Virus record (IMG/VR): IMGVR_UViG_2609460327_000001
Location: 32,001-96,000 of that record
Reading direction: 5' to 3' (one strand)
Length of the DNA stretch: 64,000 nt
Source of the DNA: a virus
Taxonomy: Duplodnaviria; Caudoviricetes
Each line of letters begins with the position of its first letter. Position 1 is the stretch's first letter. A program made the position numbers and the translations under genes. Shown here one piece after another: positions 5,278 through 28,551 of this stretch. The notes under the pieces were generated by a model. That model was not told the origin of the DNA, did no database searches, and was given only the letters and a program-made list of their open reading frames with translations.

Positions 5278-5305
5278 TTCAAAAAGCCTATGGAGCGTTA
5301 GCGAC
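5278..5305 (-). promoter_or_regulatory. Conserved intergenic element CTAACG-N7-GGCTTTTTGAA (copy 1 of 7)
   Basis: The minus strand reads GGTCGCTAACGCTCCATAGGCTTTTTGAA. Near-identical copies lie at 15778-15806 and 28284-28312. Confidence 0.6.
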
Positions 5306-5485
5306 CTAATACGAAAGCTTGTAGAGAATACGTTTTTCCTCATGAACAATAGAAGTTAAAGTAAGTATGTGATCTGAATTATCGCTAAAATGTGCAGCGA
5401 AGCGATCACCAATTTCTATATCTCGTTCAACAGGATACATGAAGTGCTGTTCGGTGCCGTCTGGCAAAACAAACACATTTCTCAT
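5306..5485 (-). CDS. Small hypothetical protein (59 aa, below the ORF-track cutoff)
   Basis: MRNVFVLPDGTEQHF...YKLSY*. It has a GGAG RBS and an ATGA overlap with the upstream gene. Confidence 0.6.
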   Translation of the reverse strand: MRNVFVLPDGTEQHFMYPVERDIEIGDRFAAHFSDNSDHILTLTSIVHEEKRILYKLSY

Positions 5486-5823
5486 ACCAGTAGCTCCATA
5501 TCATAGGCAACAACTGAAAACTCTTTTTTAGGCAGCTTATCGATTACGTTTAAAATTCCGTCAATACACAGGTAGCTGCCAACTTCGATGATATCTTTGA
5601 AATTCTGATATACATCATCAGCGATAATCACTCGGATCTCACCTATGTAGTCGTCAATAACAAATGATCGAATCGAAGATTCATTATCGAAAATAGGTAA
5701 TAAAGGCGTCAAACTGACAGAAGTAATTTTGCCAGCAATCTTAACTTCACTGAGGTACTCACCGTCTTTTAATTGTTCAGAAAAATGCGTAACCACAGAC
5801 TGTATCTTATTAATTGTTGCCAT
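5482..5823 (-). CDS. OB-fold nucleic-acid-binding protein (DnaE C-terminal OB-like)
   Basis: VKIAGKITSV...FVIDDYIGEIRVII...Y..FKDIIEVGSYLCIDG. Confidence 0.65.
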   Translation of the reverse strand: MATINKIQSVVTHFSEQLKDGEYLSEVKIAGKITSVSLTPLLPIFDNESSIRSFVIDDYIGEIRVIIADDVYQNFKDIIEVGSYLCIDGILNVIDKLPKKEFSVVAYDMELLV

Positions 5824-6082
5824 GCAATCTCACCTGCTCGTTGTATGTTTTCCATGCTTCGTCAAGCAGATCATTCAATTCATCTTCGCGAATGATTCCT
5901 CGTTTAATGAGAACGTTGAGTAATACATTGCTGATTACATAAGAAGATTGAAGCAGATCTTCTCTTCTAAGAGATACGAAAGGTTTCTCTTCTCTTGATG
6001 CAGGTATAAGATTGTCAAACAAATCACCCTGTCCATCTATAGGCATGTTAGTTCCTCCTCGGGCAGATCGCCCTCTCCTCAT
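5810..6082 (-). CDS. Hypothetical protein
   Basis: ORF in the operon; probable start MPIDGQ after GAGGAGG. Confidence 0.55.
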   Translation of the reverse strand: MRRGRSARGGTNMPIDGQGDLFDNLIPASREEKPFVSLRREDLLQSSYVISNVLLNVLIKRGIIREDELNDLLDEAWKTYNEQVRLHGNN

Positions 6083-6094
6083 AATTTGCAGTGA

Positions 6095-6817
6095 TTATAA
6101 TTTCTCTGGTGTAGAGATAATCCTCACCTTGACTTCGTGCTTTCCGTATCTAGTACGGTCAGAAGCATCGGGCACATAGATATCAATTTTGTGGCCTTTA
6201 ATAGCCCCACCAGTATCGTCAGCGCGCCGCTTCTCTACTCTGCCGTCTGGATACATGACTTCGACCCACGATCCAATTGGGATCAATCTCGGGTCTACTG
6301 CAATCGTAACACCAGCCTCTACTTTCCGACCGGAGAATGTCACTCCATAAGCCGGATGGCCGGGTCCCTTACCTGTAGATGCCTCGTTTGCATCATAGTA
6401 CGTGGCAATGTAAGACGAACCGGTGCCTTCATCCCAATTCAGTTGCCTGGTCTGGGAATTAGCACTTTGCTTTGCTTGTTCTTTTTCGCTCGAAAGCTTC
6501 TCAATTTTCTGAGTGAACAAACGATTTTGCACTTCCAGCTGCTCCTTGAACTGCTCATTTTCTTCTGCTCTTTTTTCCTTAACGGTATTGAGCTGATAGG
6601 CCAATTCATTGTTCTGCTTTTTCAAAATTTCCTGATCGTTCAGCACCTCCTGCTGAGTGTCGATCAGAAGCTTCTGGTTAGCTACAGTCTGGTTTAAGTC
6701 ATGTATCGTGTTTCTCTTTTCTTGCAAGCTACTATCCGCTCTTTGAACGCTAGTAACAAGTGCGGCAGCAAGTAGGACATTAATGACGCCCATCGTATAA
6801 AAATTACGATGTTTCAT
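6095..6817 (-). CDS. 3D-domain (MltA-like) cell-wall hydrolase with membrane anchor and coiled coil
   Basis: ATYY...GVTFSG...IAVDPRLIPIGS...ADDTGGAIKGHKIDIY is the 3D domain. The N-terminus has a hydrophobic helix. Confidence 0.9.
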   Translation of the reverse strand: MKHRNFYTMGVINVLLAAALVTSVQRADSSLQEKRNTIHDLNQTVANQKLLIDTQQEVLNDQEILKKQNNELAYQLNTVKEKRAEENEQFKEQLEVQNRLFTQKIEKLSSEKEQAKQSANSQTRQLNWDEGTGSSYIATYYDANEASTGKGPGHPAYGVTFSGRKVEAGVTIAVDPRLIPIGSWVEVMYPDGRVEKRRADDTGGAIKGHKIDIYVPDASDRTRYGKHEVKVRIISTPEKL

Positions 6818-6878
6818 TCTGTTTCCACCTCGCTTTGTTCGGTTGTCGTAAGATATCATAGCATTATACCCCATGTTT

Positions 6879-6927
6879 TGCAATGCATTACAAAATAAAA
6901 GTACTACATATAATGTAATGCGTTACA
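6879..6927. promoter_or_regulatory. Two copies of the palindromic operator
   Basis: TGCAATGCATTACA (6879-6892) and TGTAATGCGTTACA (6914-6927), upstream of the 3D gene. Confidence 0.65.
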
Positions 6928-7011
6928 ATATAGGCGATAATCTTGGAGATATTAGGTTGTGATATTAGAATAGGTCAAAAATGCTCTGTTATACGAATTA
7001 ATATTACAGAT

Positions 7012-8229
7012 TTAAACAAGATCCTCCACTTGCTGAAGGCTTGAGGACTTTGTGTGTTTTGTTGTCACCCAAACTTTCTTAGAAAAAGTCAAGAATGACC
7101 AAAAATAAAGCGGAATATTAGATAGGCTAATTAGGTTTAAATAGAAGTAAGCCTTAAAGGTATTCACCTTATGTTTTGCATCCTTTAATGAGATATGGAT
7201 ATACATAAAATTAGAAAGAAGCATAAATGTGTAAACCCACATAGGAATAATCGTATCGTATAAAGTGTGGCCAAAAACCAAAGCTATATAGAAAAATGAA
7301 GACATGATAAAAGCGGCAGCAATTCTTCCTGGATTAAGCAGATAAAGAACGCTGTCAAATGCAGATAGGTCTCCCTTTATGAATGCTCTTTTAAGCAGGG
7401 GGGCAGTATATTTAAAGCATACATCCCAATGCCCTCTCGACCAGCGAAGACGCTGAATACAGCTGTCTTTAAAGCCAGTAGGCTTCTCGTCGTATACTTT
7501 AGCATGGTGGCACCACGTTGTTTTCACGCCTCTAAGGAGAGCCTGCATTGTAAATTCTAGGTCTTCAGTCAAGCTCTTAGCTGTCCAGCCTACTTCACGA
7601 AATACGTTCATCTCTACACAGAATCCAGTGCCGCCGATCACGTTACTGAGTCCAAGACGTGATTTGGCCAATTGCCATGATCTGTTCATTACACGAAAGC
7701 TTGTATCGAATGCGATCGTTACAAAGTTGTCTGTAGGATTTTTCGTGTCTATGTAGCATTGAACGATTTTCTCTCCAGCACAAAGGTGATTGTTCATTTG
7801 TTCAAGATAATTTCTCGAAACAAGATTGTCTGCATCAAATACACAGATTGCATCATACTGATTCAGATCGACTGTTTCAATCGCATAACGAATAGCATAG
7901 GGCTTTCCTTTTTTCTCCCCTGGGAGATAAAAATGCTCAAGGACCATTACATCCTTGGATCTACCTATCTCTGCTGTGTTGTCTTGACAGTTGTCAGCAA
8001 TTAAGCAGATATCATATAGATGATCAGGATAGTCTATTTGCTTAAGATTTTCCAAGATGTCAGATATGACAGCCGCCTCGTTATTCGCAGGAATTAGAAG
8101 CAAAAATCGGTTTTCAGGCGCATGATTCGCTAACTTCTTTGCTTTGCCGAAGCCGAATAGACCAATGACAAACCAATAGCTTAACCAAAGGAAAATGACA
8201 ATCTGCATCACTTCGAAAAAAGTCTTCAA
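7012..8229 (-). CDS. Membrane-integrated processive glycosyltransferase family 2
   Basis: LIPANNE, ADNCQD, FDADN (DxD), TEDL, QRLRW (QxxRW), with N- and C-terminal TM helices. Confidence 0.92.
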   Translation of the reverse strand: MKTFFEVMQIVIFLWLSYWFVIGLFGFGKAKKLANHAPENRFLLLIPANNEAAVISDILENLKQIDYPDHLYDICLIADNCQDNTAEIGRSKDVMVLEHFYLPGEKKGKPYAIRYAIETVDLNQYDAICVFDADNLVSRNYLEQMNNHLCAGEKIVQCYIDTKNPTDNFVTIAFDTSFRVMNRSWQLAKSRLGLSNVIGGTGFCVEMNVFREVGWTAKSLTEDLEFTMQALLRGVKTTWCHHAKVYDEKPTGFKDSCIQRLRWSRGHWDVCFKYTAPLLKRAFIKGDLSAFDSVLYLLNPGRIAAAFIMSSFFYIALVFGHTLYDTIIPMWVYTFMLLSNFMYIHISLKDAKHKVNTFKAYFYLNLISLSNIPLYFWSFLTFSKKVWVTTKHTKSSSLQQVEDLV

Positions 8230-8264
8230 TGAACTAACCTCCGTTGTTATAAGAATTGAGAAAT

Positions 8265-8305
8265 AAAAAAGCCGGCAGCCCTCAAAATGAGAGCCACCGG
8301 CTTTT
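8265..8305 (-). terminator. Intrinsic terminator after the ThiF gene
   Basis: AAAAAAGCCGG...CCGGCTTTT stem with flanking A/T tracts. Confidence 0.75.
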
Positions 8306-8313
8306 ATTGTGTA

Positions 8314-9129
8314 TTATGCTGTAACTAAACGGACATTTTCTGCTAAAGCGAATTGTCCTGCAGTAATATATTCAGAGCGTGTTGATAATAGTCTTGCGTT
8401 GAAATTTGTTACATGACTGATAAGAGTGCGTGAGCCTAATATGTTATTTAGATAGCCAGCCATAACGAGAGCTGCCATTTCATTTGTCATCATGCGCTGC
8501 GGTTGATTAGCCACAATATCCCCGCAGGACTCTGTAGGGAGCTTTGATTCCGTATCTGTTAAGATATCTTCATATAGATCTCCAACCGGCTGTAGCACTA
8601 CTTTTCCGCTTAATTTAAGACCGCAAACAATCTGTCCAGAATATCCTGAAGCTGGATCATCTTCATCGTAAGGATCAATTCCACTATCAATGTAGATAAT
8701 ATCGCCTGTGCAGCTATGAAAGTATTCATGCATGATCTTGCGTGTTGCATGATTATCAACACAGCCGATAAGAATCTTTACCCGATGACCCCCAATGCTA
8801 AATGCTTCTTCAATACTTTGAATAGATTCAATGTACTCATCCTTATAATGAATCGGAAAGTCATAAACATTCCCATAACGATCAGCTAACACTTGAGACT
8901 TTACAAAACCAATATCTTCTTCGATGCATGGTTGCCGCAGGAGATTCTTCTCTTCAAATCGATCCCCATCAATAAGCGTATAAGTAAAGCGAAAAACTGG
9001 ATTCGTCTGCAGGAAAGATTTAAGCATTTTTGAAAGACGCTGGGTTAAATATCCTCCATTACCTCCGACGCCAATCTGAACAATAGAAAATCCTGATAAA
9101 GAATCAGCTACATTGATTTCCTTGATCAT
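8314..9129 (-). CDS. ThiF/E1-like ubiquitin-activating enzyme (PRTRC ThiF-like)
   Basis: IGVGGNG nucleotide-binding loop, DGDRFEEKNLLRQ, K..VLA.RY, IGCVDNHATR, YIDSG, and a candidate catalytic Cys in ESC. Confidence 0.9.
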   Translation of the reverse strand: MIKEINVADSLSGFSIVQIGVGGNGGYLTQRLSKMLKSFLQTNPVFRFTYTLIDGDRFEEKNLLRQPCIEEDIGFVKSQVLADRYGNVYDFPIHYKDEYIESIQSIEEAFSIGGHRVKILIGCVDNHATRKIMHEYFHSCTGDIIYIDSGIDPYDEDDPASGYSGQIVCGLKLSGKVVLQPVGDLYEDILTDTESKLPTESCGDIVANQPQRMMTNEMAALVMAGYLNNILGSRTLISHVTNFNARLLSTRSEYITAGQFALAENVRLVTA

Positions 9130-9136
9130 AATATAA

Positions 9137-9562
9137 TCACCCCTTTTTCGGTGCTTTGGTTACATTTGGAATGATATATTTCTGCTCCTTATCAATCATC
9201 ATTTCAGTGCGGTCTTTAGAAAATTGAGGATACTCCATTTCCAAGTACTGTCGCACTTTTTCCAATGTTAATCCGTCTTCTGGAACGGGAATGCGCTTAT
9301 CGTAAACGAGACATACCCAATTCGTATCATATTTGACAGGATCAGTCGGTGATGGCTTTGTAGCATTGACTTTAGGCTTTGAAGATTTTGATTTTGGAGT
9401 TGCTGCAGCAATAGGCTCACCAAAGAGATCATACTCAACATTAGCGTCTTTGCTTTCTGCCTCGTCTTCTGGTTCTTCTGGCTCCACTGATTTCATCATA
9501 TAATCGAGCTGCTTTTGTTTTTCTAATTCCTCATTGTTTTCTTGCTCTTGAATAAAATCCAT
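9137..9562 (-). CDS. Prokaryotic ubiquitin-like protein (PRTRC protein C-like) with an acidic N-terminal extension
   Basis: It lies between E2 and E1. The C-terminal ~65-aa compact domain (P..GLTLEKVRQYLEMEYPQF) ends in ...KKG-COOH. Confidence 0.7.
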   Translation of the reverse strand: MDFIQEQENNEELEKQKQLDYMMKSVEPEEPEDEAESKDANVEYDLFGEPIAAATPKSKSSKPKVNATKPSPTDPVKYDTNWVCLVYDKRIPVPEDGLTLEKVRQYLEMEYPQFSKDRTEMMIDKEQKYIIPNVTKAPKKG

Positions 9563-9573
9563 GATAATTCCTC

Positions 9574-10251
9574 CTAGTTGTTATTAATAAATAATCTAGA
9601 CCAATCACCAAATGTCGTATTCATTGGTGTTAGGATATCGTAATCAAATGGCTTGTTTTTAAACATGTCAAAGACATTATACAAGGTGTCTTTAATTTTG
9701 TTGGTTTCTCCGGAAAAATAAATATGATCATTATTAGGCACTTCACGCCATTGATAAGGGAATGTCTGCAACTGCACAAGATCATGAACCAACTCATTAG
9801 TCCAGTAGCAGAGCTTTCCACTATCGTAAACATTAGAATAAGGGAATCGGTATAGCTCAGACGTGTCTCTAAGGCTTAAGTCTTTATAAGCTGCAACATA
9901 TGCCGATATGAGTGTTTTACCAGCAACAGCAAAAGCAAAAACCATTTTTGGATATGGTATCGATTCGAAACTAAAATCATGATATTTAACATCATGGGTA
10001 GTTTCTTCTACTGTAATAAATAAATAGTTTGTTCCTTTTTCAGATTGAGCATATTTGGCTGTGTTTTGTGGAAGCGCAGGAGAAGTAAGAACCACTCTAT
10101 CAGATGTAAATTCTTTCCCTCCTGTTGATGATTGAAGCATATCAATAATTTGATCCGCATAAACATATTTCGTCGTTTTAACTCCATTATCTTCAATAAT
10201 TAAAAGCGGCATCTTTTCAGGATGAAGCTCGATCTTGACTGACATTTCCAT
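9574..10251 (-). CDS. Prokaryotic E2-like conjugating enzyme (family D / PRTRC protein B-like)
   Basis: PYPKMVF...LYRFPYSNVYDSGKLCYW is the E2-type P..NV...G.lC motif. Confidence 0.8.
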   Translation of the reverse strand: MEMSVKIELHPEKMPLLIIEDNGVKTTKYVYADQIIDMLQSSTGGKEFTSDRVVLTSPALPQNTAKYAQSEKGTNYLFITVEETTHDVKYHDFSFESIPYPKMVFAFAVAGKTLISAYVAAYKDLSLRDTSELYRFPYSNVYDSGKLCYWTNELVHDLVQLQTFPYQWREVPNNDHIYFSGETNKIKDTLYNVFDMFKNKPFDYDILTPMNTTFGDWSRLFINNN

Positions 10252-10744
10252 TGCCTCCTTCTGTTAAATATGGCTTTATTTCTTTAAGTAAGTTCATAAA
10301 ATTTATAGCACCCAACCCCACACCAACAAAATAATAATATTTAATATGCAATATATCTTCTTGTTCGATTTCCCACGAGGCATCAAAATCAAAACCTGAA
10401 ATATCATCAAGAATATCTTCAAACTTCTTTTTGATGGGAGCTAGTATTTTTAATTCTGTTTCTGTTAAATCTTCACGAAAATAAAACTCGATTCTCGCAA
10501 TTGTATCTTCATGATCATCATCGGAATAGCCAAATACTGCTCCGTAGGGAAATATAAGATCGTGAAGAGTTAGGCGAAATAATGTTTGAACTAATCCATC
10601 ACCAGGCTGAGTTGTTAAGTTATTAAATTCCGATGAAGTTTCAAAATTATTAATCCTTCGAATTTTCAAGAGTGCAAGAATATCTAATTGATTAAGCCAA
10701 TAATCACGTTCTTCAGCTCCGAACAAAGGGGTAACTTCGTGCAT
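10217..10744 (-). CDS. Hypothetical protein in the E2/Ubl/E1 operon
   Basis: 175-aa ORF with a GAGGTG RBS, overlapping the E2 gene. Confidence 0.65.
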   Translation of the reverse strand: MHEVTPLFGAEERDYWLNQLDILALLKIRRINNFETSSEFNNLTTQPGDGLVQTLFRLTLHDLIFPYGAVFGYSDDDHEDTIARIEFYFREDLTETELKILAPIKKKFEDILDDISGFDFDASWEIEQEDILHIKYYYFVGVGLGAINFMNLLKEIKPYLTEGGNGNVSQDRASS

Positions 10745-10758
10745 GGATCACACCTCTA

Positions 10759-11100
10759 TTAAAAAAATTTTACTGGTTGTCGAACTCGCTGCATCTTTTT
10801 TAGCTCAAATATAAATTCGCGCATATATACATGTTGATAAATACTGTCTCTCAGCATATTGGGAGTATACTCCTCCCCATCTTCAAGGGTGGCAGTATAA
10901 TTAATCTCTTCGAATAGTCGTTTAATGCCTTCAAAGCTAATGTTATCAAGCTGCTCATCAGATACTGAGTTGTTATTAAAAATGACATTTGCAACTTTCA
11001 ATTCTTCTTCTTGATACTGGATATTATTGCTATTAATTGACTGAGTAGATAATGCGATTTCTAGTACACTACTATAATTAAAAAATTGTTCTTTAGGCAT
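10759..11100 (-). CDS. Hypothetical protein
   Basis: 113-aa ORF, translationally coupled (TAATG). Confidence 0.6.
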   Translation of the reverse strand: MPKEQFFNYSSVLEIALSTQSINSNNIQYQEEELKVANVIFNNNSVSDEQLDNISFEGIKRLFEEINYTATLEDGEEYTPNMLRDSIYQHVYMREFIFELKKMQRVRQPVKFF

Positions 11101-11447
11101 TAGATCAACCCCCTGTTTTTTGCTTCTTCAATCATCAATAAATAAGTTTTGGATTTGCGAAGATATTCAGCAATAACATCCATCCTTATATTTTTAGCTT
11201 TATTGCGCCTGTATTTTTTACTCATAATTTGAGAAGCAAGCTCGCGAAGATCAATATCCTGCACTCTTCTTTCAGTTAGGCGAATACAATTTAAAAGATG
11301 ACTATCTGTCATATTGGCAGGCCGAATAACTAACCCCTTTTCTGTAGTCCAGAAGCCAATGAAATCCCCATTTTTAGCCTTCTGCAAATTGATTGAAGCC
11401 TGAAACTCACCGGGGTCTCGATAATGATAGGCTGTCATTAATTCCAT
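11100..11447 (-). CDS. Hypothetical protein with MELMxxY N-terminus
   Basis: Starts MELMTAY after a GGGGTG RBS. Confidence 0.7.
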   Translation of the reverse strand: MELMTAYHYRDPGEFQASINLQKAKNGDFIGFWTTEKGLVIRPANMTDSHLLNCIRLTERRVQDIDLRELASQIMSKKYRRNKAKNIRMDVIAEYLRKSKTYLLMIEEAKNRGLI

Positions 11448-11490
11448 GAATGTTCACCCCAATAAACATTAATTTCAAAAGAGATAATTT

Positions 11491-12306
11491 TTATGTGTTG
11501 AATATAGATTCGTATCGTTGCTGATCGTGGTACTTCTTCATCAAGTTATTAAGATCAAGCTGGGCTTCAATTTCTAAAAGCAAATCATTGTCATGACAAC
11601 TTGATCTCGAATATGATCCTCCACTGTAATTAATATAAGAAATGTCTGGGTTCTGATACTCACCTTTCAAATCACTTGAGCTGGAATTTATCCAAGAACT
11701 AAAATTTACTTTGAACTTCGGCTTATATGTATAGAATTTGCCGATGCCAAGAGGCGATTTTGTAATCCGCCCGAACCTTTTTTCACATATGGTATCAATA
11801 GGTTCTCCCCAGGTAGATGAGACCCATAAATGACCTCGATCCCCAAAATTCTTAAATATATGAGTTAATCGGTGCTTATGGATAACCTTTGGCCATATAT
11901 GTTTGCGAACATAGCTAGTCTTCTCAAATTTAATAACTTCACGGACAATTATCTTTCTAGCCTGCTGCTTAGTAACACCACTTGTTTTGCAAAGCACATG
12001 CACTTGGCCATGCTGATTAAACTGTAGATGCAGGTCATAAAGAGAGCGCCAGACTCTACGCTTCTGGCGCTTATCATAGTAGTGAACCCGCTTATGATCA
12101 AGACGACCGGTGTAATTATACAAGTTATAAAAAGTATCGGGCTCGACCTTAAAGCTATAGTTTCCATCAGGAATAAATTCTTCACCCCAATAATCTGACC
12201 TGCCCATTGCTTCTAAGTGAATCAATTGGTGAGCGAAGTAAACCTTCTCTTTTTCAGGCCCATATAAATATGGGACCTTCTTTACAACAACCGGCATTCC
12301 TTTCAT
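11491..12306 (-). CDS. Hypothetical protein
   Basis: 271-aa basic ORF with an AGGAGG RBS. Confidence 0.65.
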   Translation of the reverse strand: MKGMPVVVKKVPYLYGPEKEKVYFAHQLIHLEAMGRSDYWGEEFIPDGNYSFKVEPDTFYNLYNYTGRLDHKRVHYYDKRQKRRVWRSLYDLHLQFNQHGQVHVLCKTSGVTKQQARKIIVREVIKFEKTSYVRKHIWPKVIHKHRLTHIFKNFGDRGHLWVSSTWGEPIDTICEKRFGRITKSPLGIGKFYTYKPKFKVNFSSWINSSSSDLKGEYQNPDISYINYSGGSYSRSSCHDNDLLLEIEAQLDLNNLMKKYHDQQRYESIFNT

Positions 12307-12317
12307 AAAGATTCCTC

Positions 12318-15753: not shown

Positions 15754-15807
15754 AAAAATTCCCTCCGTAAATTTAATTCTAAAAAGCCATAGGAGCGTAA
15801 GCGACAA

Positions 15808-17850: not shown

Positions 17851-17916
17851 GATTAAATTCCTCCAAAGTATGTTTTATTATTTAACTTCAAAAAGCCCCC
17901 GCAGTCGTTAGACTGC

Positions 17917-19884: not shown

Positions 19885-19980
19885 GATATGACACTCCTTT
19901 AAATATAGTATGGTACTGCTATACTCCCGAGTTGGGAGCCCGCGCTTGGCCAAAAGCCTATTTATAGTCGCCAAGCCGAC

Positions 19981-20232
19981 TTAGAAAAAGAGGGATGCTG
20001 ATTGTCTGATGCATTCTTGTTTGAGATGCTGATTTTTGACAAATAAGTCAACGAGCATTAATTTGAGTGCGCTTTCAGGAATATCTTTGATCTGTTCGGA
20101 CACCCAATGAGTAAGCAAATTACTTTCAGTTTCGATATCAAATGAAGCATTCTCGATATAAGCGGACATATTATCAAGGTATTGTTTGGCTTGATCATCG
20201 GTCATTTTCTCTTGTGCGACAGCAGTTAACAT
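19981..20232 (-). CDS. Hypothetical protein
   Basis: 83 aa with a GGAG RBS. Confidence 0.6.
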   Translation of the reverse strand: MLTAVAQEKMTDDQAKQYLDNMSAYIENASFDIETESNLLTHWVSEQIKDIPESALKLMLVDLFVKNQHLKQECIRQSASLFF

Positions 20233-20952: not shown

Positions 20953-21082
20953 CTACATATAATTCCTCCTTCTAGTAGTTTGCTAGAATTATACAATTGT
21001 GTTAAGCATATTAATAGTACTAATCAATAGTACGAAAACACGTCCTGATAAATGAAAGAGCCAAGCTTAATTACCTAATCGC

Positions 21083-21206: not shown

Positions 21207-21425
21207 CTATTGAGCGGATTCAGATAGCTCCATTAGATAAGCCGAATAAATAAAGAACATCATAAGTATAATTGCTCCTATAACCTCAAACTTGCGCTTT
21301 AGCGGGATTTTAGGATTTCTGAGAGCGGGAATAGCGATGATAAAGCATAGGAAAAGAAACAGCTCGAATATGATAACAGCAATTGTATTATACGTCTGGT
21401 TTATATCTATGATTATAACCTCCAA
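21207..21425 (-). CDS. Small membrane protein (2 TM)
   Basis: Two hydrophobic stretches separated by a basic loop. Confidence 0.55.
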   Translation of the reverse strand: MEVIIIDINQTYNTIAVIIFELFLFLCFIIAIPALRNPKIPLKRKFEVIGAIILMMFFIYSAYLMELSESAQ

Positions 21426-21502
21426 TCATATTCTGTTTCGCTGCTAGTACAGCTCATCAGTACGGTTTGATTACCGCAGACAGAATAGGGGAGAGGCCCC
21501 CC

Positions 21503-21757
21503 TTATTTTTGCATTGGTATACGAACGATCATACCTGGCTTAAGATCACCTGGATTATGTAAGTTGCTTTTATCAATCATATAGGCGACGATGGCACGTT
21601 TATCTGTATCAATGTCACTTTGCTCAGCAATACTCCAAAGTGTATCGCCAGAATCAACAACATAGTCAACATATGCAGGATCAGGCTGCCATGCAATAAT
21701 GCCAATAGTAGTACAGAGAGTGATAAAGAATGCGATAGCAAGTGATTTAGTTTTCAT
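21503..21757 (-). CDS. Membrane-anchored LysM protein (YneA-like architecture)
   Basis: N-terminal TM helix, then YVVDSGDTLWSIA...N.L...LKPGMIVRIP. Confidence 0.85.
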   Translation of the reverse strand: MKTKSLAIAFFITLCTTIGIIAWQPDPAYVDYVVDSGDTLWSIAEQSDIDTDKRAIVAYMIDKSNLHNPGDLKPGMIVRIPMQK

Positions 21758-21843
21758 AGGTAAAACCTCCAGTTTATGATTGAATAAGAAAAAGGACTGC
21801 TATATAGACAGTCCTCATAAAGCCCTTGCTATCGTTAGATAGC

Positions 21844-22077
21844 CTAGAAATGATATTGCTCACAAGAGATAATTTCATCCTCATGAAGAAGAAGATCAAT
21901 GAGAAGAGTAGTCCCAGAAGCTAAATCGAAAGAGATAGCATAATCAAAGTGAAAGTTTTCACCTTCTCGTTTAGAAAAAGACGCCTGAATGTTTCTTTCT
22001 TTGGTGTCCTTGATGTTGTATAGTCGTCCTGGAATCATGAGAACTTTGTTTACTGGGTGTAGAATAGGTGGTTGCAT
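21844..22077 (-). CDS. Hypothetical protein
   Basis: 77 aa with an AAGGAG RBS. Confidence 0.55.
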   Translation of the reverse strand: MQPPILHPVNKVLMIPGRLYNIKDTKERNIQASFSKREGENFHFDYAISFDLASGTTLLIDLLLHEDEIISCEQYHF

Positions 22078-22139
22078 GTAGAAAATCTCCTTTGAATTAG
22101 AAATAAAAAAGACTGCCTAAGTGGCAGCCGAAGGTAAAA

Positions 22140-22523
22140 CTATTCATCCATCTCGCCAATATCGACAGTTACTGTTGATATCTCATATCGATATATTGGA
22201 ACGCTTAATAATTTATAATTAAATTTGGCAGGCGAGTCTGGAAATGCTCTGAACATATTGCGCTTCTCGAAAATAACAATCTCATCATCACCATTATCTT
22301 TTCTGGTCAAAACAATATAATCCAGGCGATCTATGATGTCATATTCTATGAATGGAATGAGCTTATTTACAACTTCTTCGAAATACTTATGAATTGGATC
22401 AACAGTTATTACAGTAGCTCCATCGTGGGAAGTTAGACCATGATTTAGGTATTCATCAATCAAGTCATGCAGGAAATAATCTAAATCTAAATTGCTTACT
22501 GTCAAAAGAATCCGTCCCCTCAA
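22140..22523 (-). CDS. Hypothetical protein
   Basis: 127-aa ORF followed by a terminator-like hairpin (~22105-22130). Confidence 0.55.
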   Translation of the reverse strand: MRGRILLTVSNLDLDYFLHDLIDEYLNHGLTSHDGATVITVDPIHKYFEEVVNKLIPFIEYDIIDRLDYIVLTRKDNGDDEIVIFEKRNMFRAFPDSPAKFNYKLLSVPIYRYEISTVTVDIGEMDE

Positions 22524-22540
22524 AATAGAATAATTTACCT

Positions 22541-22972
22541 TTAAAACAATAGCATAGAATCATTCTGATTGGCAGTGCTAATCCAACCGCATTGATCCTC
22601 AAAATGAATAAGCTCAGCTTGATCAATTACGGATCCATCAAGAGTATGAAATTCTCGAGAACGGTAAGGATTATATCTTACTTGAACATTAAGATCTGCA
22701 GACTTGTCTGAATCAATAGCAACAAGAGTTCCGGAGAAGACAGCACAAACAGCTCGTTGTTTCTTCTCTTGAATAGAATCATATTTGCTCTGAATAATAC
22801 GAGAACGAGCCGACCTAATGGTGACTCGCTCTGCATAAGCCAATACTTTATTATATGTAGGACTCTTAGGCTGACGATCAAGAATACTGAATACACCTTT
22901 CTTATTCAGATTCACATAAACGTCAACACGCTGTCCTATAATTGGATTCCCATTTCGTATTTCCAATATCAT
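22541..22972 (-). CDS. Phage hypothetical protein
   Basis: 143 aa with an AAGGAG RBS. Confidence 0.65.
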   Translation of the reverse strand: MILEIRNGNPIIGQRVDVYVNLNKKGVFSILDRQPKSPTYNKVLAYAERVTIRSARSRIIQSKYDSIQEKKQRAVCAVFSGTLVAIDSDKSADLNVQVRYNPYRSREFHTLDGSVIDQAELIHFEDQCGWISTANQNDSMLLF

Positions 22973-22983
22973 ATGCTCCTTTA

Positions 22984-23238
22984 CTATACGGCAGCGCTGA
23001 TAAGCGCAGAGTCCACACGAATGATTGATTCATAAGAAAACTGGCAATTCACATCGAAAGTAATCTCACCTTCAGCAGTACGCTTTTCAGCATTATTCAT
23101 GCGGACAACATAAGGGAGGTTAGGGTCGATAAAACATTCACCAGTATATTGAGTTCCATTGATAACAGTAACCGTGTTGATCTTGCCAGGGGAGAGAAGA
23201 CTATCATAGCGGCGATCATAACCAAACATTAAATCCAT
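22984..23238 (-). CDS. Hypothetical protein with MDLMxxY N-terminus
   Basis: Starts MDLMFGY. Confidence 0.6.
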   Translation of the reverse strand: MDLMFGYDRRYDSLLSPGKINTVTVINGTQYTGECFIDPNLPYVVRMNNAEKRTAEGEITFDVNCQFSYESIIRVDSALISAAV

Positions 23239-23273
23239 TCGACCACGTCCTTGTATGAAATAAAAAAGCTCAC

Positions 23274-23456
23274 CTATTGGCGAGCTTTAATCGTTGCTTG
23301 TATTCGTTTATTAATTTCTTTTCTATTTCTGATAAAGGCACTGACATTAGAAGTGTCAACTCCAGGCAATGTTTGTTCAACATAATGACCGTTAGTGTGT
23401 CGATCAGCGGCTTTTTCTAATTCTTTGAAGCGTCGATCAAGTATTTCTTTGTCCAT
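23274..23456 (-). CDS. Small basic protein, partner of the GNAT gene
   Basis: Start MDKEI after GAGGTG. Confidence 0.55.
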   Translation of the reverse strand: MDKEILDRRFKELEKAADRHTNGHYVEQTLPGVDTSNVSAFIRNRKEINKRIQATIKARQ

Positions 23457-23470
23457 GTTAATCACCTCTC

Positions 23471-23941
23471 TTATAAGTATACATTAACCAAATGCTGAGC
23501 GGTAGTCTCAGATACAATCATATCTTGGCCACTTATAGGAACCGCACCTAAAGATGAGAAATAATTGACCAGTTTAGTCTTAGCTTTCAGGCCAATAAAA
23601 CCTTCGTGACCTAGTTCCATGCTTCGTTTACAGCAAAATGCAAATAAATGAGCTCCAATATGAGAAAACTGTTTATTAATCGGATCCCTATTACGGGGTG
23701 AGCTTTCGATTAAAAGCATAAAAACATGATCTTCTTTCTTTTCCAGTGCAATGGCGCCTTGTATTGTACCACTAGGATCACCTGTAACAACCATTTTATA
23801 CACTTCTACTTTAGGAGCGTTAAAATAAATATTCCAGTCAAAAGAAGGCTCCCATCCAGTTTTATTCATAAATTTGACATCTGCTTTGGTTAAAGGAAGG
23901 AAGGATACGGGATATTCTTCACCATTTCTATGTAGAATCAT
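23471..23941 (-). CDS. GNAT-family acetyltransferase
   Basis: IQGAIAL...VFMLLIESSPRN...HIGAHLFAFCCKRS...G.EGFI.L.AK..LVNYF..LGA. Confidence 0.7.
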   Translation of the reverse strand: MILHRNGEEYPVSFLPLTKADVKFMNKTGWEPSFDWNIYFNAPKVEVYKMVVTGDPSGTIQGAIALEKKEDHVFMLLIESSPRNRDPINKQFSHIGAHLFAFCCKRSMELGHEGFIGLKAKTKLVNYFSSLGAVPISGQDMIVSETTAQHLVNVYL

Positions 23942-24104
23942 TTTGCTAAAAGAACTCCTTTCATAAGCGGAAAATGCGGTTCTTTGATCATATTAGCATA
24001 ATAAATATGCTTAATGATTTATTTCACTAATTAAATTATTAATGTAATGAAATAAATAATGAACATAATAAAAGCCGCCCAATAACGAGCGGCAATGAAA
24101 CACA

Positions 24105-24509
24105 TTACATAGAAAAAGATAATCTAGGCGGCATCATATAATGGACGCCTACACGTAAAGCCATCTTAGCTTTATCTATATCCTTATAGTATCCAGATAT
24201 GCGATCGTGGTGAAGGCAGACATCAAGTTCAAAATCATAAGAGTCATAGCCAATATAATATCCTGCGGCTGAGTGCATAATCTTTTCAGGGGAGACGAGA
24301 TTACCATAAACATCAAAGTTGTAACGGTATGTATTATCTAAGTATTCAAACAGTAAAGATTTAGCTTTAGTAACTGAATAGTCAGGCTCATAAATAAAGA
24401 TGCCTTCTGATTCAAGTATGTCCATCAAAAGACTGCGGGAGATATTCTGAGCGGCAGGGTAGAGAGGTAAAATAGAATCTAAAAGTTCTACAACTTGCAT
24501 AGTATTCAT
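24105..24509 (-). CDS. Hypothetical protein
   Basis: Start MNTMQ after GGAG. There is an operator copy at 24536-24549 upstream and a terminator at ~24070-24093 downstream. Confidence 0.6.
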   Translation of the reverse strand: MNTMQVVELLDSILPLYPAAQNISRSLLMDILESEGIFIYEPDYSVTKAKSLLFEYLDNTYRYNFDVYGNLVSPEKIMHSAAGYYIGYDSYDFELDVCLHHDRISGYYKDIDKAKMALRVGVHYMMPPRLSFSM

Positions 24510-24602
24510 ATGTATAGTCTCCAATCTAGTTAAAATGTAATGCGTTAAATTATATATCGGATAACATAATAATATCATAAAGACCTCGGAGCCGTTAGGC
24601 TC

Positions 24603-25046
24603 CTACAAGGCACCGACATAGTTGTAGTAATCGCCTTCAGAAGCAAAGGCGCCACCAAATGGACCGTCATTCTCATCATCGCATGGTGTGCCAAACTGAG
24701 AGATATATTCATGACCATCAGCATACCAAGCGCGAAGACCAAGCATGTATAAATCGTTATTAACCACAAAGCCGCCAAACTCATCATCAAGCTCTTGTTT
24801 TAAAGCAGGATTAGCATCTGGATAGTATTTCAAATCAATTTCAGGCTTGCTGATAACCGGTACGATAAGAGCAGGATCATAGCCTTGATCACGCATCTTG
24901 TTGATGATGTCATTACAGCATGCTTCTGCCCACATCTCAATACGAAGATCAGAAGAGCTGAAGCACTCAGGATTGTGTGAAGATGCTTTGTAGCCATAAA
25001 ACATCATAGAAATCACATGTTCAAAGTTTTCGTTATGTATACGCAT
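24603..25046 (-). CDS. Acidic hypothetical protein
   Basis: Start MRIHN after GGAGG. Confidence 0.6.
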   Translation of the reverse strand: MRIHNENFEHVISMMFYGYKASSHNPECFSSSDLRIEMWAEACCNDIINKMRDQGYDPALIVPVISKPEIDLKYYPDANPALKQELDDEFGGFVVNNDLYMLGLRAWYADGHEYISQFGTPCDDENDGPFGGAFASEGDYYNYVGAL

Positions 25047-25186
25047 TATAAATAGCCTCCATATGTATAAATTCAAAAAGCCCCCGAAGCCGTTAGGCTT
25101 CCGAGAGCGATAGTTAATTGATTGCTATAAAGAATGCGAAAGCTCAATATCATTTGGCGCCGTTCCGAAGGATCGGCAAAAGAAAA

Positions 25187-25402
25187 TTAAAGATCAAATA
25201 GGCGATTATCACTATATAAGATACCTAGCTCTTTATCGCTATGGTATAGCTTCTTACCATACTCATAGCCAAGCTTATACTGAGGATCCTCAGTATATAC
25301 GCTAGGGTAGAGGGAGACATAGCCATAGCAATAATGATAAGCATCAACTACACCATTATAATACTCCTTAGTATTCTCCTTATAAGCAGACATCAGCTCC
25401 AT
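25187..25402 (-). CDS. Tyr-rich small protein, MELMxxY family
   Basis: MELMSAY; overlaps the upstream stop codon. Confidence 0.65.
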   Translation of the reverse strand: MELMSAYKENTKEYYNGVVDAYHYCYGYVSLYPSVYTEDPQYKLGYEYGKKLYHSDKELGILYSDNRLFDL

Positions 25403-25710
25403 CATGGCCCACTCCAAAATGGTGGATACATAATACCTACTATGTCAAACTCTCGAATATAGTGTTGATTAGAAGTACTCTCATCGTGAATCACAATGTA
25501 TTTAGAAATTAAATCTTCGTTAACCTCCTGAATAACGCCAGTTGCATAGGATCTGGATATCGTCTTATTATCTAAATCTACGTCATGATAATGTATCACA
25601 CGTACAAAATCACCTATATAGAAGTCGGCATCTTGAAATGTAATGCGATTCATTATAGGGGGAGAAAAGGTAAAACCAGTATTCTCTAAATAGACATTCA
25701 TTAATTCCAT
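25402..25710 (-). CDS. Small protein, MELMxxY family
   Basis: MELMNVY, GGAGG RBS, TGATG coupling. Confidence 0.7.
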   Translation of the reverse strand: MELMNVYLENTGFTFSPPIMNRITFQDADFYIGDFVRVIHYHDVDLDNKTISRSYATGVIQEVNEDLISKYIVIHDESTSNQHYIREFDIVGIMYPPFWSGP

Positions 25711-25979
25711 CAGGCGCCTCCATGAAGTTTGACATTATAGATATTTCCTTCGTATAGAGATATATGTCCATGGTTGGATCGAGGACCATCATCCGGATCT
25801 CGATATATAATTCGAAACATCATACGTTCATGCTGTGAATCGTCATCCCTGTGCATATACTGAGCAATATACTTTATTCCAGGCCGGTCATAGTAGTATT
25901 CGAACTCATAGACTAAGCCTGGAACCATATCTTCTGGTTCTATATGTTTGCGTAGGCGATAACTAGTCATTAATTCCAC
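25710..25979 (-). CDS. Small protein, MELMxxY family
   Basis: A GTG start 8 nt after AAGGAG gives MELMTSY. Confidence 0.7.
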   Translation of the reverse strand: MELMTSYRLRKHIEPEDMVPGLVYEFEYYYDRPGIKYIAQYMHRDDDSQHERMMFRIIYRDPDDGPRSNHGHISLYEGNIYNVKLHGGA

Positions 25980-26206
25980 TCCCAACACTCCTTTATGTTA
26001 GATAGTGGTATGGAACAAGAATTAACTTCATGAAGCATGTTATCTCGGCCATCAAAAGAGACAAGTGCAAATGTAAGAGTGATTCCATCTTCGGTGGCAG
26101 CCGCGATCATGCCCAGATAATAATCATTGCTATAGGTAACAAATACATATTCATCACCTATAGCATACTCAAGCATGGTTCTAAGGTAAGGAGCAATCAG
26201 TTCCAT
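25970..26206 (-). CDS. Small protein, MELMxxY family
   Basis: ATG 26206, 10 nt after AAGGAG, gives MELIAPY. Confidence 0.65.
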   Translation of the reverse strand: MELIAPYLRTMLEYAIGDEYVFVTYSNDYYLGMIAAATEDGITLTFALVSFDGRDNMLHEVNSCSIPLSNIKECWEWN

Positions 26207-26426
26207 AGATTTCATACTCCTTTATAGAGTCAACATGTAATGACATTTCTGATGTTGACTTAATATTACGAGGATCATCACATAAAGATATGTCTACCAT
26301 GCCAAGCTTTAAAAAGTTGCGGTCTAGGGAAACTACAGTTCCGAGCAACTGATCACCGTTGTTTAGTAACTTATAGTCACATCCTATATGAAGCAACGAT
26401 TTAATATACGATGAAATGAGCTCCAC
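26181..26426 (-). CDS. Small protein, MELMxxY family
   Basis: GTG 26426 after GGAGAG gives MELISSY. Confidence 0.65.
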   Translation of the reverse strand: MELISSYIKSLLHIGCDYKLLNNGDQLLGTVVSLDRNFLKLGMVDISLCDDPRNIKSTSEMSLHVDSIKEYEIYGTDCSLP

Positions 26427-26428
26427 GA

Positions 26429-26671
26429 TCAATCACTCTCCATATAAATACTTAATTGATCTATCTCGTCTGGTGCAAACATCATCCCTATTCTGCAGTA
26501 CTGATTATTGATAGTATACGTGTGAAAGATCAAAACTTGAGAATCATGTCTATGCTTATGGAAAACAGCAATATGATACTGACCTTCATAATAAAAAGAA
26601 TAGGTATTGCCAGGGATAAGCTGATGCGCAGCAACAATAGTTCGTTCAAAGTAAGGAGACATAAGCTCCAT
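26429..26671 (-). CDS. Small protein, MELMxxY family
   Basis: ATG 26671 after GAGGTG gives MELMSPY. Confidence 0.7.
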   Translation of the reverse strand: MELMSPYFERTIVAAHQLIPGNTYSFYYEGQYHIAVFHKHRHDSQVLIFHTYTINNQYCRIGMMFAPDEIDQLSIYMESD

Positions 26672-26684
26672 TATATACACCTCA

Positions 26685-26945
26685 TTAGCGCTCTTTTACA
26701 CTACCAGGATCCGCTCTGCGCAGGATCTCATCATAGACAGCGTATGCATATTCCCAGTCTTCGAATTTCTTATCATATATAGAGATGGTTTCCCATCCTC
26801 GCCAGCCACCAACATCACTCCAATAGTCTTTTGAAACAATGATTCGAGCCGGTTTAGGGAGAATATCCCCAGTCCTTTGAATCTGAGAGTAATGCTTAAC
26901 GCTATCTTTAGTGAAAAAATGTCTCTTTATAGGCTTAGCACCCAT
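26685..26945 (-). CDS. Hypothetical protein
   Basis: 86 aa with an AGGAGGT RBS. Confidence 0.6.
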   Translation of the reverse strand: MGAKPIKRHFFTKDSVKHYSQIQRTGDILPKPARIIVSKDYWSDVGGWRGWETISIYDKKFEDWEYAYAVYDEILRRADPGSVKER

Positions 26946-26956
26946 AGCAATACCTC

Positions 26957-27154
26957 CTATAGGTGCCTTCTTGTAGCATGACCAGCTTCAATAAGTTTAT
27001 TAAGATAGCGTAGCTGCTGCGCTGCATAGTATGGATCATCACTATCACTAAGCCTATTCTTTATATCTTGCAGGGCAATCAGCGGGAAATCATATTCACC
27101 AATCAGCTTATTTATCTCAGCTGATACATACTCATGAGTAATCTCTTGACTCAT
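26957..27154 (-). CDS. Hypothetical protein
   Basis: Probable start MSQEIT after AAGGAAG. Confidence 0.55.
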   Translation of the reverse strand: MSQEITHEYVSAEINKLIGEYDFPLIALQDIKNRLSDSDDPYYAAQQLRYLNKLIEAGHATRRHL

Positions 27155-27155
27155 A

Positions 27156-27344
27156 TTATCTTCCTTTCTTAATAAGATTATCAAGCTCTCTACTGATATT
27201 ATCGAGAGCTTGGCTTTCTCTGGTCTGAGCATCATGTATGCGCTTAGTTGATCGGCGTATAGATAGAATATTGATTACGGCAATGGCCGCAATGGCAATA
27301 GATATTACAGATATAACAGTCGAGACCCAGAGTATAGGGCTCAT
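27156..27344 (-). CDS. Small single-TM membrane protein
   Basis: MSPILWVSTVISVISIAIAAIAVINIL followed by a coiled tail. Confidence 0.55.
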   Translation of the reverse strand: MSPILWVSTVISVISIAIAAIAVINILSIRRSTKRIHDAQTRESQALDNISRELDNLIKKGR

Positions 27345-27492
27345 AAGCATCAACTCCAATGCATAGGGTTTTAAAAGGTTTTAGCGCCGTTCCGTAAGGA
27401 TCGGCAAAAAGAAAAAATCCAAGCCGCATACCATTAATACTATAGCTCACTATATAAACAGTATACAGCATAAGCATACATAGAAGATAAGA

Positions 27493-27798
27493 CTATAGAT
27501 CAAGTAGAGGAACATTCCTATTAGGAACAGATATCATCTCAGTACCGAAAGAGCCCATACGCAAAGATACAGCACCAACATCTATAAGCTTACGCATACG
27601 ATACTCCAGTTCCTTCTCAGTAAGACCATGCTTCATATCATAATAGTTAGGATACATTTGAACTACAGTATAGAAAGGAACCTCCTCATTACCTGAGATA
27701 TCTAACGTTTTAGTTATAGCATGCAGAGCCTCAAAGTTGCGATAACCTAATTGTTCATTAGTGTAATTCATATCAAATTCATTAACAGCATTGTTCAT
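27493..27798 (-). CDS. Putative winged-helix-like protein
   Basis: LTEKELEYRMRKLIDVGAV. It resembles the neighbouring gene product (KKEFQYRLVVLIDAGFI). AGGAGG RBS. Confidence 0.5.
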   Translation of the reverse strand: MNNAVNEFDMNYTNEQLGYRNFEALHAITKTLDISGNEEVPFYTVVQMYPNYYDMKHGLTEKELEYRMRKLIDVGAVSLRMGSFGTEMISVPNRNVPLLDL

Positions 27799-27915
27799 AT
27801 CATTAATCCTCCTATAGATAATTAGAATATAAGCTGGGCGATCAATAAACCAGTGGTAACACCCAGCGCAAAGTAAACAACAACATCCCATTTAGTACGC
27901 ATATATAAATCCTCC

Positions 27916-28254
27916 TTAAGATACAGCAGATACAGCATCATATCTCTTCATACCAAGCTCAGTAGGAGAGAGTATATCATTCATATCTATAGTCTCTCTA
28001 TATATAAAGCCGGCATCAATCAATACAACCAGTCTATACTGGAACTCCTTCTTGCCCATAGTATACTTCATATTCACACTATGGTAACTAGCATGTAGCA
28101 TGCAGAGATTGCTACCAGAGATAGTTCTTCCAGTATGTAGTCTAAGCATATCCATGAGAAAAGCAAATACATCTAAGTTGCGATTACGTACTTCCTCTTT
28201 AGATAAACTATGATCGAATAAGCTACGTCCTTCAGTTAGCAATTTGTTGCTCAT
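27916..28254 (-). CDS. Putative winged-helix-like protein, paralog-like to 27493-27798
   Basis: RNLDVF/RNFEAL and EFQYRL..LIDAG/ELEYRM..LIDVG similarities. Confidence 0.5.
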   Translation of the reverse strand: MSNKLLTEGRSLFDHSLSKEEVRNRNLDVFAFLMDMLRLHTGRTISGSNLCMLHASYHSVNMKYTMGKKEFQYRLVVLIDAGFIYRETIDMNDILSPTELGMKRYDAVSAVS

Positions 28255-28551
28255 ATAGATAGCCCCCTTGTTCAAGTTAAACATTCACAATGCCACAGGA
28301 GCGTTAGCGACCATCGTCTACACTATCTATTACATCGTCATACACTATAGAAGACTTAAGATAATCATACGCAGGATGAAGAAAATTTTCGGATGAGGGT
28401 TCACCACTTTCAGTCGCATATGATATACGAAATAGGTAATATAGCATTCGAAGTATGATATATGGCAGGATGTAGCTCTCTGTGATATAAGTCATCGTAC
28501 ATAAAGTAGCGTCACAATTGAGATTGCACACGATTCGGATAGGTGATAACA

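Follow-up and report, generated by a model that had tools for sequence, protein, structure and literature searches.

A hairpin-plus-tail element, designated H, recurs ahead of ten early and replication genes in the leftward arm of a jumbo phage-plasmid genome, the arm headed by a phage RNA polymerase (RNAP) gene, and we infer that one of the phage's two putative two-barrel RNAPs may use it as a class of hairpin-type promoter, working like the early promoters of phage N4 but outside their family; by our estimate the chances that this reading is correct are about even. The genome, G000, is the 206,307-bp virus record IMGVR_UViG_2609460327_000001 (completeness rating 100%), and the window analysed, 64,000 nucleotides long, comprises its bases 32001-96000; positions given below are those of the window unless assigned to the genome, to one of its other stretches or to a relative. 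Leftward genes of G000 occupy the part of the genome below ~64.6 kb and rightward genes the part above 65.7 kb, each set reaching the respective end. The left arm opens with the gene for the 1210-aa protein P0001, followed by ~100 mostly small genes and by genes for RecA, two SNF2 helicases, a primase, a beta clamp, ThyX and others. The right arm (140 kb) carries terminase, capsid and giant tail-type proteins, with further replication genes at its far end.

Among named relatives, 'plasmid unnamed1' of Paenibacillus urinalis 2022CK-00829, a circular molecule of 214,846 bp, is the closest, matching G000 with 94.2% identity across 93% of a 15-kb query, and because of this relationship G000 is, on sequence grounds, a jumbo phage-plasmid of Paenibacillus. 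Its terminase shares 34-45% identity with the counterparts in Moorella phage MTATph1 and Bacillus jumbo phages, and a search of a phage collection for near-identical DNA gave no match. The relatives used for comparison all carry the RNAP gene, with identities to P0001 of 81% in G001 (a 117-kb fragment syntenic with G000), 44% in L041 and 32-39% in G004, G005 and G006, the last being a 228,841-bp record that emerged from the RNAP-homolog search and is listed as a Paenibacillus rhizovicinus plasmid.

A covarying hairpin and tail in the left arm

Read on the sense (minus) strand, a copy of H consists of a 6-bp stem, a T(A/T)AC loop closed by a C-G pair, three variable nucleotides and then GGCTTTTTGAA or a near variant. 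An initial annotation of the window had reported seven such copies, and all seven are present, with plus-strand CGTTAG at 5296, 17906, 21833, 24593, 25091 and 28302 and CGTAAG at 15796. The CGTTAG hexamer alone is not enriched (13 found vs 18.2 expected), and two more plus-strand sites, at 23390 and 28801, occur without the tail. What distinguishes H is the bipartite arrangement: the pattern CTAACG-N7/8-GGYNTTNTR, which by its wording misses 15796 (CTTACG) and 24593 (different tail), gives 5 matches vs 0.00 expected, and none of 100 shuffles yields any. The four compensatory stems that had been quoted (GCAGTC/GACTGC, GCTATC/GATAGC, GGAGCC/GGCTCC and GAAGCC/GGCTTC) are likewise found as described, and the other three copies do share GTCGCT(A/T)ACGCTCC.

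A covariance model (R1), an analysis that the initial annotation had proposed, was used to scan the genome; it returns ten copies at 38-55 bits, the next match scoring 14 bits, and agrees with a loose pattern search. All ten lie on the minus strand between genome positions 4952 and 60312, three of them to the left of the window. In the G000 stems, 84.2% of 57 cells are paired and both sides change in 4/6 pairs, with a paired share and a covariation score that were reached by 0/500 shuffles; two of the five measures applied, both of them counting measures, are not unusual (reached by 28/500 and 241/500 shuffles). Registers slid along the alignment pair only 23-44%. A pseudoknot between the loop and downstream sequence was considered by eye and rejected as inconsistent among copies.

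Proceeding leftward from the polymerase gene, copy 1 (28284..28312, minus strand, as are all that follow) belongs to the GGTCGC-TAAC-GCTCC class with tail GGCATTGTGAA and scores 41 bits; of all copies it comes first after the RNAP gene, at ~580 nt, and its G001 ortholog is conserved. Copy 2 (25072..25101; GAAGCC-TAAC-GGCTTC, GGG, GGCTTTTTGAA; 52.2 bits) is followed by a start codon 25 nt past its tail. Copy 3 (24574..24603; GGAGCC-TAAC-GGCTCC, GAG, GGTCTTTATGAT; 47.3 bits) begins at the upstream stop codon, and 25 nt beyond it comes a second motif, P, described below. Copy 4 (21814..21843; GCTATC-TAAC-GATAGC, AAG, GGCTTTATGAG; 43.9 bits) had been said to precede a terminator, and its tail indeed runs directly into a canonical intrinsic terminator of 9 pairs and a T run (21792..21816, minus strand). 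Copy 5 (17887..17916; GCAGTC-TAAC-GACTGC, GGG, GGCTTTTTGAA), the best-scoring at 55.3 bits, has a G001 ortholog with the same stem and an altered spacer and tail. Copy 6 (15778..15806; TGTCGC-TTAC-GCTCC class, tail GGCTTTTTAGAA; 38.1 bits) has an ortholog there with tail GGCTATATGAA, and copy 7 (5278..5306; GGTCGC-TAAC-GCTCC, ATA, GGCTTTTTGAA; 47.5 bits) precedes genes that encode 254 aa, 94 aa and RecA.

Versions of H in related genomes

Across lineages, H takes the general form of a 5-6 bp hairpin with a C-TNNC-G loop, 2-3 nt, and then KKC-N4-YGA. In G000, G001, the P. urinalis plasmid, L041, G004, G005 and G006 it always lies on the strand of the RNAP gene and downstream of it, the first copy following the gene by 255-1300 nt, so that the restriction to the polymerase-headed arm first noticed in G000 holds in all lineages examined. 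The P. urinalis plasmid has 10 matches on a single strand at 55.6-111.0 kb, preceded by the RNAP gene at 51.4-55.0 kb. In G001, 7 model matches and 1 degenerate copy spotted by eye share the RNAP strand and follow the gene; they have TAAC or TGAC loops, except for one copy with the three-nucleotide TAC (68302), several of their stems differ through paired changes, and their tails include GGCTTCTTGAA, GGCTTTACGAA, GGCTTGACGAT and GGCTATATGAA. L041 has four copies of GCATGC-TNAC-GCATGC followed by 3 nt and TTC-N5-GAA, with the tail TTCATGGTGAA. In G004, G005 and G006, the stems are of 5 bp, the loop is TGAC or TGTC/TATC, and 2 nt lead to TTC-N4-YGA with no U run. The U-rich tail of G000 is thus not retained in the relatives, where tails such as TTCACTGCAG and TTCATGGTGAA replace it. 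Loop and tail together vary by lineage (TNAC with GGC..., TGAC with TTC..., TGTC/TATC with CATTC...), while the hairpin architecture is constant.

A second model, R2, finds 11, 16 and 9 copies in the three full records of this set (G004, G005 and G006), and all 36, including the 11 that had served to build the model, lie on the RNAP strand downstream of the gene. An alignment of 29 distinct copies, which was fitted to the model and so favours the structure, has 97.2% of its 145 cells paired and two-sided changes in 36; these values and the covariation score were reached by 0/500 shuffles.

Outside this group the element is scarce. The strict pattern matches 36 loci in IMG/VR, and besides G001's own copy a full stem is present in 1/35 (L090), the others being attributable to chance. 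Alicyclobacillus and Oceanobacillus genomes with relatives of the RNAP give weak R1 matches only, and three Oceanobacillus matches at contig ends, rrn-like at first sight, proved to lie antisense in the 23S-5S spacer and were rejected as chance. In SPbeta, 72 kb searched with R1 in two stretches that include the yonN-yonK gap hold no convincing H-like element, the best match scoring 15.3 bits (E 0.11) with no hairpin aligned.

Position relative to genes and terminators

The surroundings of H were surveyed for 51 copies from six lineages. A Shine-Dalgarno (SD) site and start codon follow within 150 nt in 45/51 copies, at a median of 31 nt from the end of the tail (range 12-138), and an upstream open reading frame (ORF) ends within 40 nt in 41/51, of which 28 end -9 to +4 nt from H. 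The initial annotation had most copies beginning right at the upstream stop codon, and this is borne out in G000, where the stop ends -9 to +3 nt from the hairpin in 8/10 copies. In six copies, the TAA or TGA of the loop itself is the stop codon of the upstream gene (for example, genome 30882-30885, G001 91059 and G005 49144).

Units that follow H in G000 are often short, with a terminator or a motif P copy after only one or two genes, and the left arm contains at least 11 terminator-like hairpins. A 157-aa gene is preceded by H in both G000 and G001, with different versions of H and different upstream genes, and near a LysM gene one H occupies a different junction in the two genomes. G005 carries a tandem pair at 36465/36542, 77 nt apart with no ORF between.

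Two non-coding regions flank the RNAP gene. A 570-nt stretch (28320-28890, minus strand) extends from the terminator of this gene to H copy 1; it has blocks in common with G001 (81% mean column identity), has no match in Rfam, and holds a CCCTTCGGG hairpin beside an H-like core without the tail. CCTTCGG hairpins of a similar kind precede H copies in L041 and G005, and the stretch may be a structured RNA or control region. Upstream of the gene, the stretch 32530-32890 contains many C runs and TATATAG/TGTGTAG-like units and may be a promoter or origin region.

Wobble pairs and the folding strand

Because the sense RNA of H could form the same hairpin as the DNA, the kinds of pairs in the stems bear on the level at which H is recognized. 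Among 277 stem positions there are 246 Watson-Crick pairs, 3 G.U, 4 A.C and 24 other non-pairs, whereas 11 terminator-like hairpins of the same arm contain 20 G.U among 114 pairs (17.5%), a control share that is inflated, since the program used to find terminators lets G-T pairs lengthen a stem. The contrast between G.U and Watson-Crick pairs in the two sets (Fisher p = 2e-8) suggests that it is the DNA that pairs. Such mismatches as there are take another form on the opposite strand: an A.C pair in the copy at genome 30885, retained in its G001 ortholog, corresponds to G.T on the template strand, and the CU/UC mismatch of the GGTCGC class corresponds to tandem G.A. The template strand also folds at least as well as the sense strand in 17/17 copies, with summed folding energies of -135 vs -111 kcal/mol under RNA parameters and -75 vs -66 under DNA parameters. 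Overall, these comparisons favour pairing in DNA, or on both strands.

Two candidate polymerases

P0001, whose gene (28892..32524, minus strand) heads the arm with all H copies downstream, is by way of its homologs a YonO/QDE-1-type enzyme and would represent a non-virion two-barrel RNAP. Searches with P0001 itself against Pfam, PHROG and PDB sequences gave no match, and the family assignment was made through homologs: PF05183, the family of QDE-1-type 'RdRP' proteins that has YonO-like enzymes as relatives, is found in 19/36 of them, and the motif GGADNDGDE is invariant in 15 aligned homologs. A DFDxD-type motif forms the catalytic site of cellular RNAPs, as stated in an available excerpt of a study of crAss-like phages (bioRxiv 10.1101/2020.03.07.982082). 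The homologs are located on Bacillales contigs of ~190-230 kb, and P0001 is the sole G000 match to its family.

The second protein, P0038 (2260 aa), is encoded outside the window at genome 109654-116436 (L149:654-7433, plus strand), between two giant virion-module proteins, and is carried by 5/5 relatives examined. It has an N-terminal DnaQ-like exonuclease signature, and NxRYPTFH...ADSDGD is invariant in 14 homologs. Pfam and PDB sequence searches identified no RNAP, a profile comparison with the P0001 family gave no match, and an Atlas comparison gave a weak lead only (0.78). A structure model was built for residues 1301-1960, with a mean pLDDT of 59.8 and most of residues 300-570 at 70-90; all 50 Foldseek matches listed for it are largest subunits of cellular RNAPs (E 7.5e-7 to 5.2e-6), mostly over ~225-310 aligned columns and with low TM-scores. 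On this modelled fold, P0038 looks like a candidate virion RNAP with a beta-prime-like fold around the invariant ADSDGD, resembling the virion-module RNAPs of crAss-like phages and P23-45 (for crAss-like phages, excerpts of bioRxiv 10.1101/2020.03.07.982082). The 224 ORFs scanned, most of which have no assigned family, yielded no recognizable sigma factor, Nus-like protein or T7-like RNAP.

A promoter proposal and its alternatives

The initial annotation had offered three readings of H: a boxB-boxA-like antitermination signal, a processing signal, or a hairpin promoter for the phage polymerase as in N4. The last fits best, with the amendment that H would stand outside the N4 family, given its 4-nt loop and the lack of a recognizable T7-like enzyme. 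As we picture it, a phage two-barrel RNAP would recognize H in part through the shape it takes when the DNA is unwound or extruded, and the more likely reader would be the non-virion P0001 rather than P0038. The layout would then resemble that of T7, in which gene 1 stands before the T7 promoters: the polymerase gene comes first, and its promoters would occur only downstream. Two-barrel enzymes favour a pyrimidine at -1 and a purine at +1, which makes the conserved Y-G-A a plausible start site, so that RNA might begin in or just after the 11-nt tail, and the leaders would be ~15-60 nt in length and carry the SD site. That loops and tails vary by lineage while the hairpin is constant suggests co-evolution with a phage protein as opposed to host factors. 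The proposal also draws on the number and one-sided placement of the copies, their short distance to an SD site and start codon, the stem covariation, the scarcity of G.U, the tandem pair of G005, the 157-aa gene that has H before it in both G000 and G001, the likeness to N4 P2 and the two RNAP-like proteins in a phage with no recognized sigma factor among 224 ORFs. A sigma-70 promoter was considered and rejected: with TTGAA taken as the -35 element no -10 element lies at 16-18 nt, and the SD site is too near (10 nt after the tail in the copy at 25091). Promoter scans of G000 showed no enrichment of promoter-like sites.

Several observations count against this proposal. The GGTCGC class, 3/10 of the G000 copies, folds only weakly whichever strand is considered (-1 to -4 kcal/mol) and conserves sequence as opposed to pairing, and the distance from hairpin to tail varies by 2 nt among lineages. 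Motif P is also promoter-placed and is conserved more widely, so that H need not be the polymerase's promoter. An intrinsic terminator lies upstream (at 32 nt) of just 1/51 copies, although a terminator-then-promoter order would be expected more commonly, and in 3/51 copies (window 21833, G004 124552 and G005 48148) a terminator directly follows. These last cases might be reconciled with a promoter because YonO-type enzymes are described, in excerpts of PMC5467207, as lacking the flap that mediates hairpin-dependent termination, and because promoter-then-stem-loop cassettes exist in T4-type phages. Finally, short stems may avoid wobble pairs in any case, and since the sense RNA can fold the same hairpin, the argument from G.U pairs is statistical and not decisive.

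This last point leads to the possibility, which we judge unlikely but well worth considering, that H acts in the mRNA 5' leader, either as a site at which a phage RNA-binding protein controls translation, stability or cleavage, or by loading a non-Nus antitermination factor. UNAC loops are a stable tetraloop class, and protein-binding sites in RNA typically combine a fixed loop with a stem of free sequence; H stands 12-138 nt before start codons, and the three copies with a terminator right behind them are placed as an antitermination signal should be. The arm also contains a Pistol ribozyme, which implies that its mRNA is processed at least once. Set against these features are the rarity of G.U (3/277, compared with 17.5% in the hairpins of the inflated terminator control), mismatches of the kind tolerated on the opposite strand, and the tandem pair and the 10-16 copies per arm, which would be unusual for antitermination sites; that no RNA-binding or Nus-like protein was recognized in the 224 ORFs counts only weakly, because most have no family. 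A more specific RNA-level scheme, in which the tail would act as an rrn-type boxA and recruit host NusB:S10 so that host RNAP resists the terminators of the arm, is very improbable in our judgement. It draws on the order of hairpin and boxA-like tract, which is that of B. subtilis rrn leaders, on the at least 11 terminator-like hairpins to be overcome, and on the G000 tail GGCUUUUUGAA, which by eye matches the B. subtilis rrn boxA-like consensus core AUGAUCUUUGAAA at 8/10 positions and that of E. coli at 7/10, the consensus being taken from an excerpt of PMC13753749. The proposed likeness fits the G000 tail and fails for the divergent tails of the relatives: G001 has GGCTATATGAA and GGCTTGACGAT, L041 has TTCATGGTGAA, and G004-G006 have TTC-N4-YGA without a U run. 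Host Nus factors are conserved and their site should be as well, yet the tail of H changes; moreover, there are 10-16 sites per arm, each right before a gene.

The lack of the U-rich tail in the relatives not only argues against a NusB-type boxA but also rules out a plain terminator. RNA 3' ends at the U tract of every copy had been named as the sign of plain terminators, and the U run proves not to be conserved among the relatives. That H is a terminator or attenuator at gene ends, for host or phage polymerase, is scarcely credible even though 28/51 copies begin -9 to +4 nt from an upstream stop codon and a T5 run follows the hairpin in G000: 6 nt (NNGGGC) separate the stem from this run, the run is missing in the relatives and in some G001 copies, genuine terminators of the arm look different, and a terminator scanner calls no H copy on the minus strand. 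The next gene, moreover, follows after 12-60 nt, which leaves no room for another promoter. H might alternatively be a DNA site with a role other than transcription initiation, for example as a regulator's operator, as a signal for priming or as a hot spot for recombination where cassettes meet, which we regard as improbable. Such a role would accord with pairing that is apparently at the DNA level and with the location of H at borders where the gene contents of G000 and G001 differ, much as in the PeSL cassettes of T4-type phages (PMC2839356, in part). It would not account for the strict co-orientation of H with genes and its strict confinement downstream of the RNAP gene, or for its absence from the 140-kb right arm, where replication genes are present too; a replication signal would be expected on the other strand of the other arm.

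Relation to known systems and significance

If H is a hairpin promoter, its nearest functional counterpart would be the early promoters of the N4 virion RNAP. N4 P2, as represented on the RNA-like strand by an oligonucleotide in the excerpted text of PMC13492108, has a 5-bp hairpin with a 3-nt loop, then 4 nt and GGC, with +1 at the first G, and G000 H similarly presents a hairpin, 3 nt and GGC. Both have a short hairpin with a free stem (5-7 bp in N4-type promoters and 5-6 covarying bp in H), a fixed loop and a short spacer, and H, too, is proposed to be read by a phage enzyme as opposed to a host sigma factor. In N4-type promoters, RNA synthesis begins on a single-stranded template ~11 nt beyond the middle of the loop. 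The two differ in that N4 has a 3-nt loop centred on a critical -11G of the template strand (PMC13492108, excerpt), whereas H has a 4-nt loop, GTNA or GNCA on the template, reduced to 3 nt only in the G001 copy at 68302. N4 has three promoters (P1-P3) as opposed to 10-16 copies of H, and it uses a T7-like right-hand virion enzyme, whereas the candidates in the H phages are of the two-barrel type, with no T7-like RNAP among the 224 ORFs.

Other systems share fewer of these properties. The rrn boxB-boxA and lambda nut sites also combine a hairpin with a short U-rich box, and the G000 box resembles the Bacillus consensus (PMC13753749, excerpt), but the box of H is not kept in relatives, its many copies each precede a gene, and no N-like or Nus-like gene was recognized. 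PeSLs of T4-type phages resemble H as small repeated regulatory cassettes between early genes, at the borders of shuffled modules, in which a promoter may be directly followed by a terminator stem-loop (PMC2839356, excerpt); they differ in possessing sigma-70-like -35/-10 elements, of which H has none at a fixed place and for which the SD spacing leaves no room. An enzymatic parallel is YonO of SPbeta, a single-chain two-barrel RNAP of a Bacillales temperate phage that transcribes a defined gene block and whose promoter sequence, according to excerpts of the same account (PMC5467207), is still undetermined. For crAss-like phages, the excerpted text (bioRxiv 10.1101/2020.03.07.982082) reports no common motif upstream of the early transcripts of the virion enzyme, and the available portions of the crAss and P23-45 papers mention no hairpin promoter. 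The suggestion of the initial annotation that the element belongs to an undescribed transcription-control system is fair: no description of an H-like element was found in the literature on YonO, crAss-like virion RNAP, Bacillus jumbo-phage RNAP or hairpin promoters, within a coverage that excludes most subscription journals.

We put forward somewhat more tentatively, at slightly less than even probability, the broader proposal that H could be the first defined promoter class of YonO/QDE-1-type single-chain two-barrel RNAPs, independent in origin of N4 and shared, with loops and tails particular to each lineage, by a group of ~200-kb Bacillales phage-plasmids, and that with motif P and P0038 it could form a two-polymerase, two-promoter-class programme. 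If correct, it would show how a minimal relative of cellular RNAPs locates start sites and would provide a second, independent case of promoter recognition through DNA shape. In jumbo phage-plasmids of Paenibacillus, Bacillus and relatives, a widespread but unstudied group, H marks the regulon of early and replication genes, and its 10-16 natural variants per genome, together with the lineage versions, offer a ready mutational series for in vitro work.

A second motif and other features

Motif P, GTAACGCATTAC, is a near-palindrome that reads (a/t)aatGTAACGCATTACa(a/t)t. Allowing at most 1 mismatch, it has ~25 copies genome-wide, distributed over both arms and mostly 15-50 nt before start codons. 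One copy in the window (TTAACGCATTAC; 24537..24548, minus strand) lies between H copy 3 and the next gene, and further window copies are found at 33633-33644 (plus strand), 6915-6926 (minus strand) and 45506-45517 (plus strand). P recurs nearly letter for letter in relatives with 31-44% RNAP identity (L041, L056, L057, L058, L062 and L067), and it adjoins H in either order, as at G000 24537, L041 17539 and G006 125210. P could be another promoter class or an operator.

Other genes and RNAs were noted in both arms. At 8314-10251 (minus strand) in the left arm, a ThiF/E1-like gene adjoins a prokaryotic E2-like gene, and in the right arm a Tad2-like anti-Thoeris gene is located at L008 6510-6812. 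A UvrD-like helicase gene is split (L003 1026-3012, minus strand; genome 20823-22812) into an N-terminal part and a 95-aa C-terminal piece that lie ~680 nt apart with a small opposite-strand ORF between them, an arrangement also present in G001. A tRNA-Ile (GAT) gene lies close to the end of the left arm (L002 2394-2465, minus strand). The Pistol self-cleaving ribozyme (RF02679) is located at 19917-19981 (minus strand), between two small left-arm genes, and scores 47.3 bits against a gathering score of 34.5.

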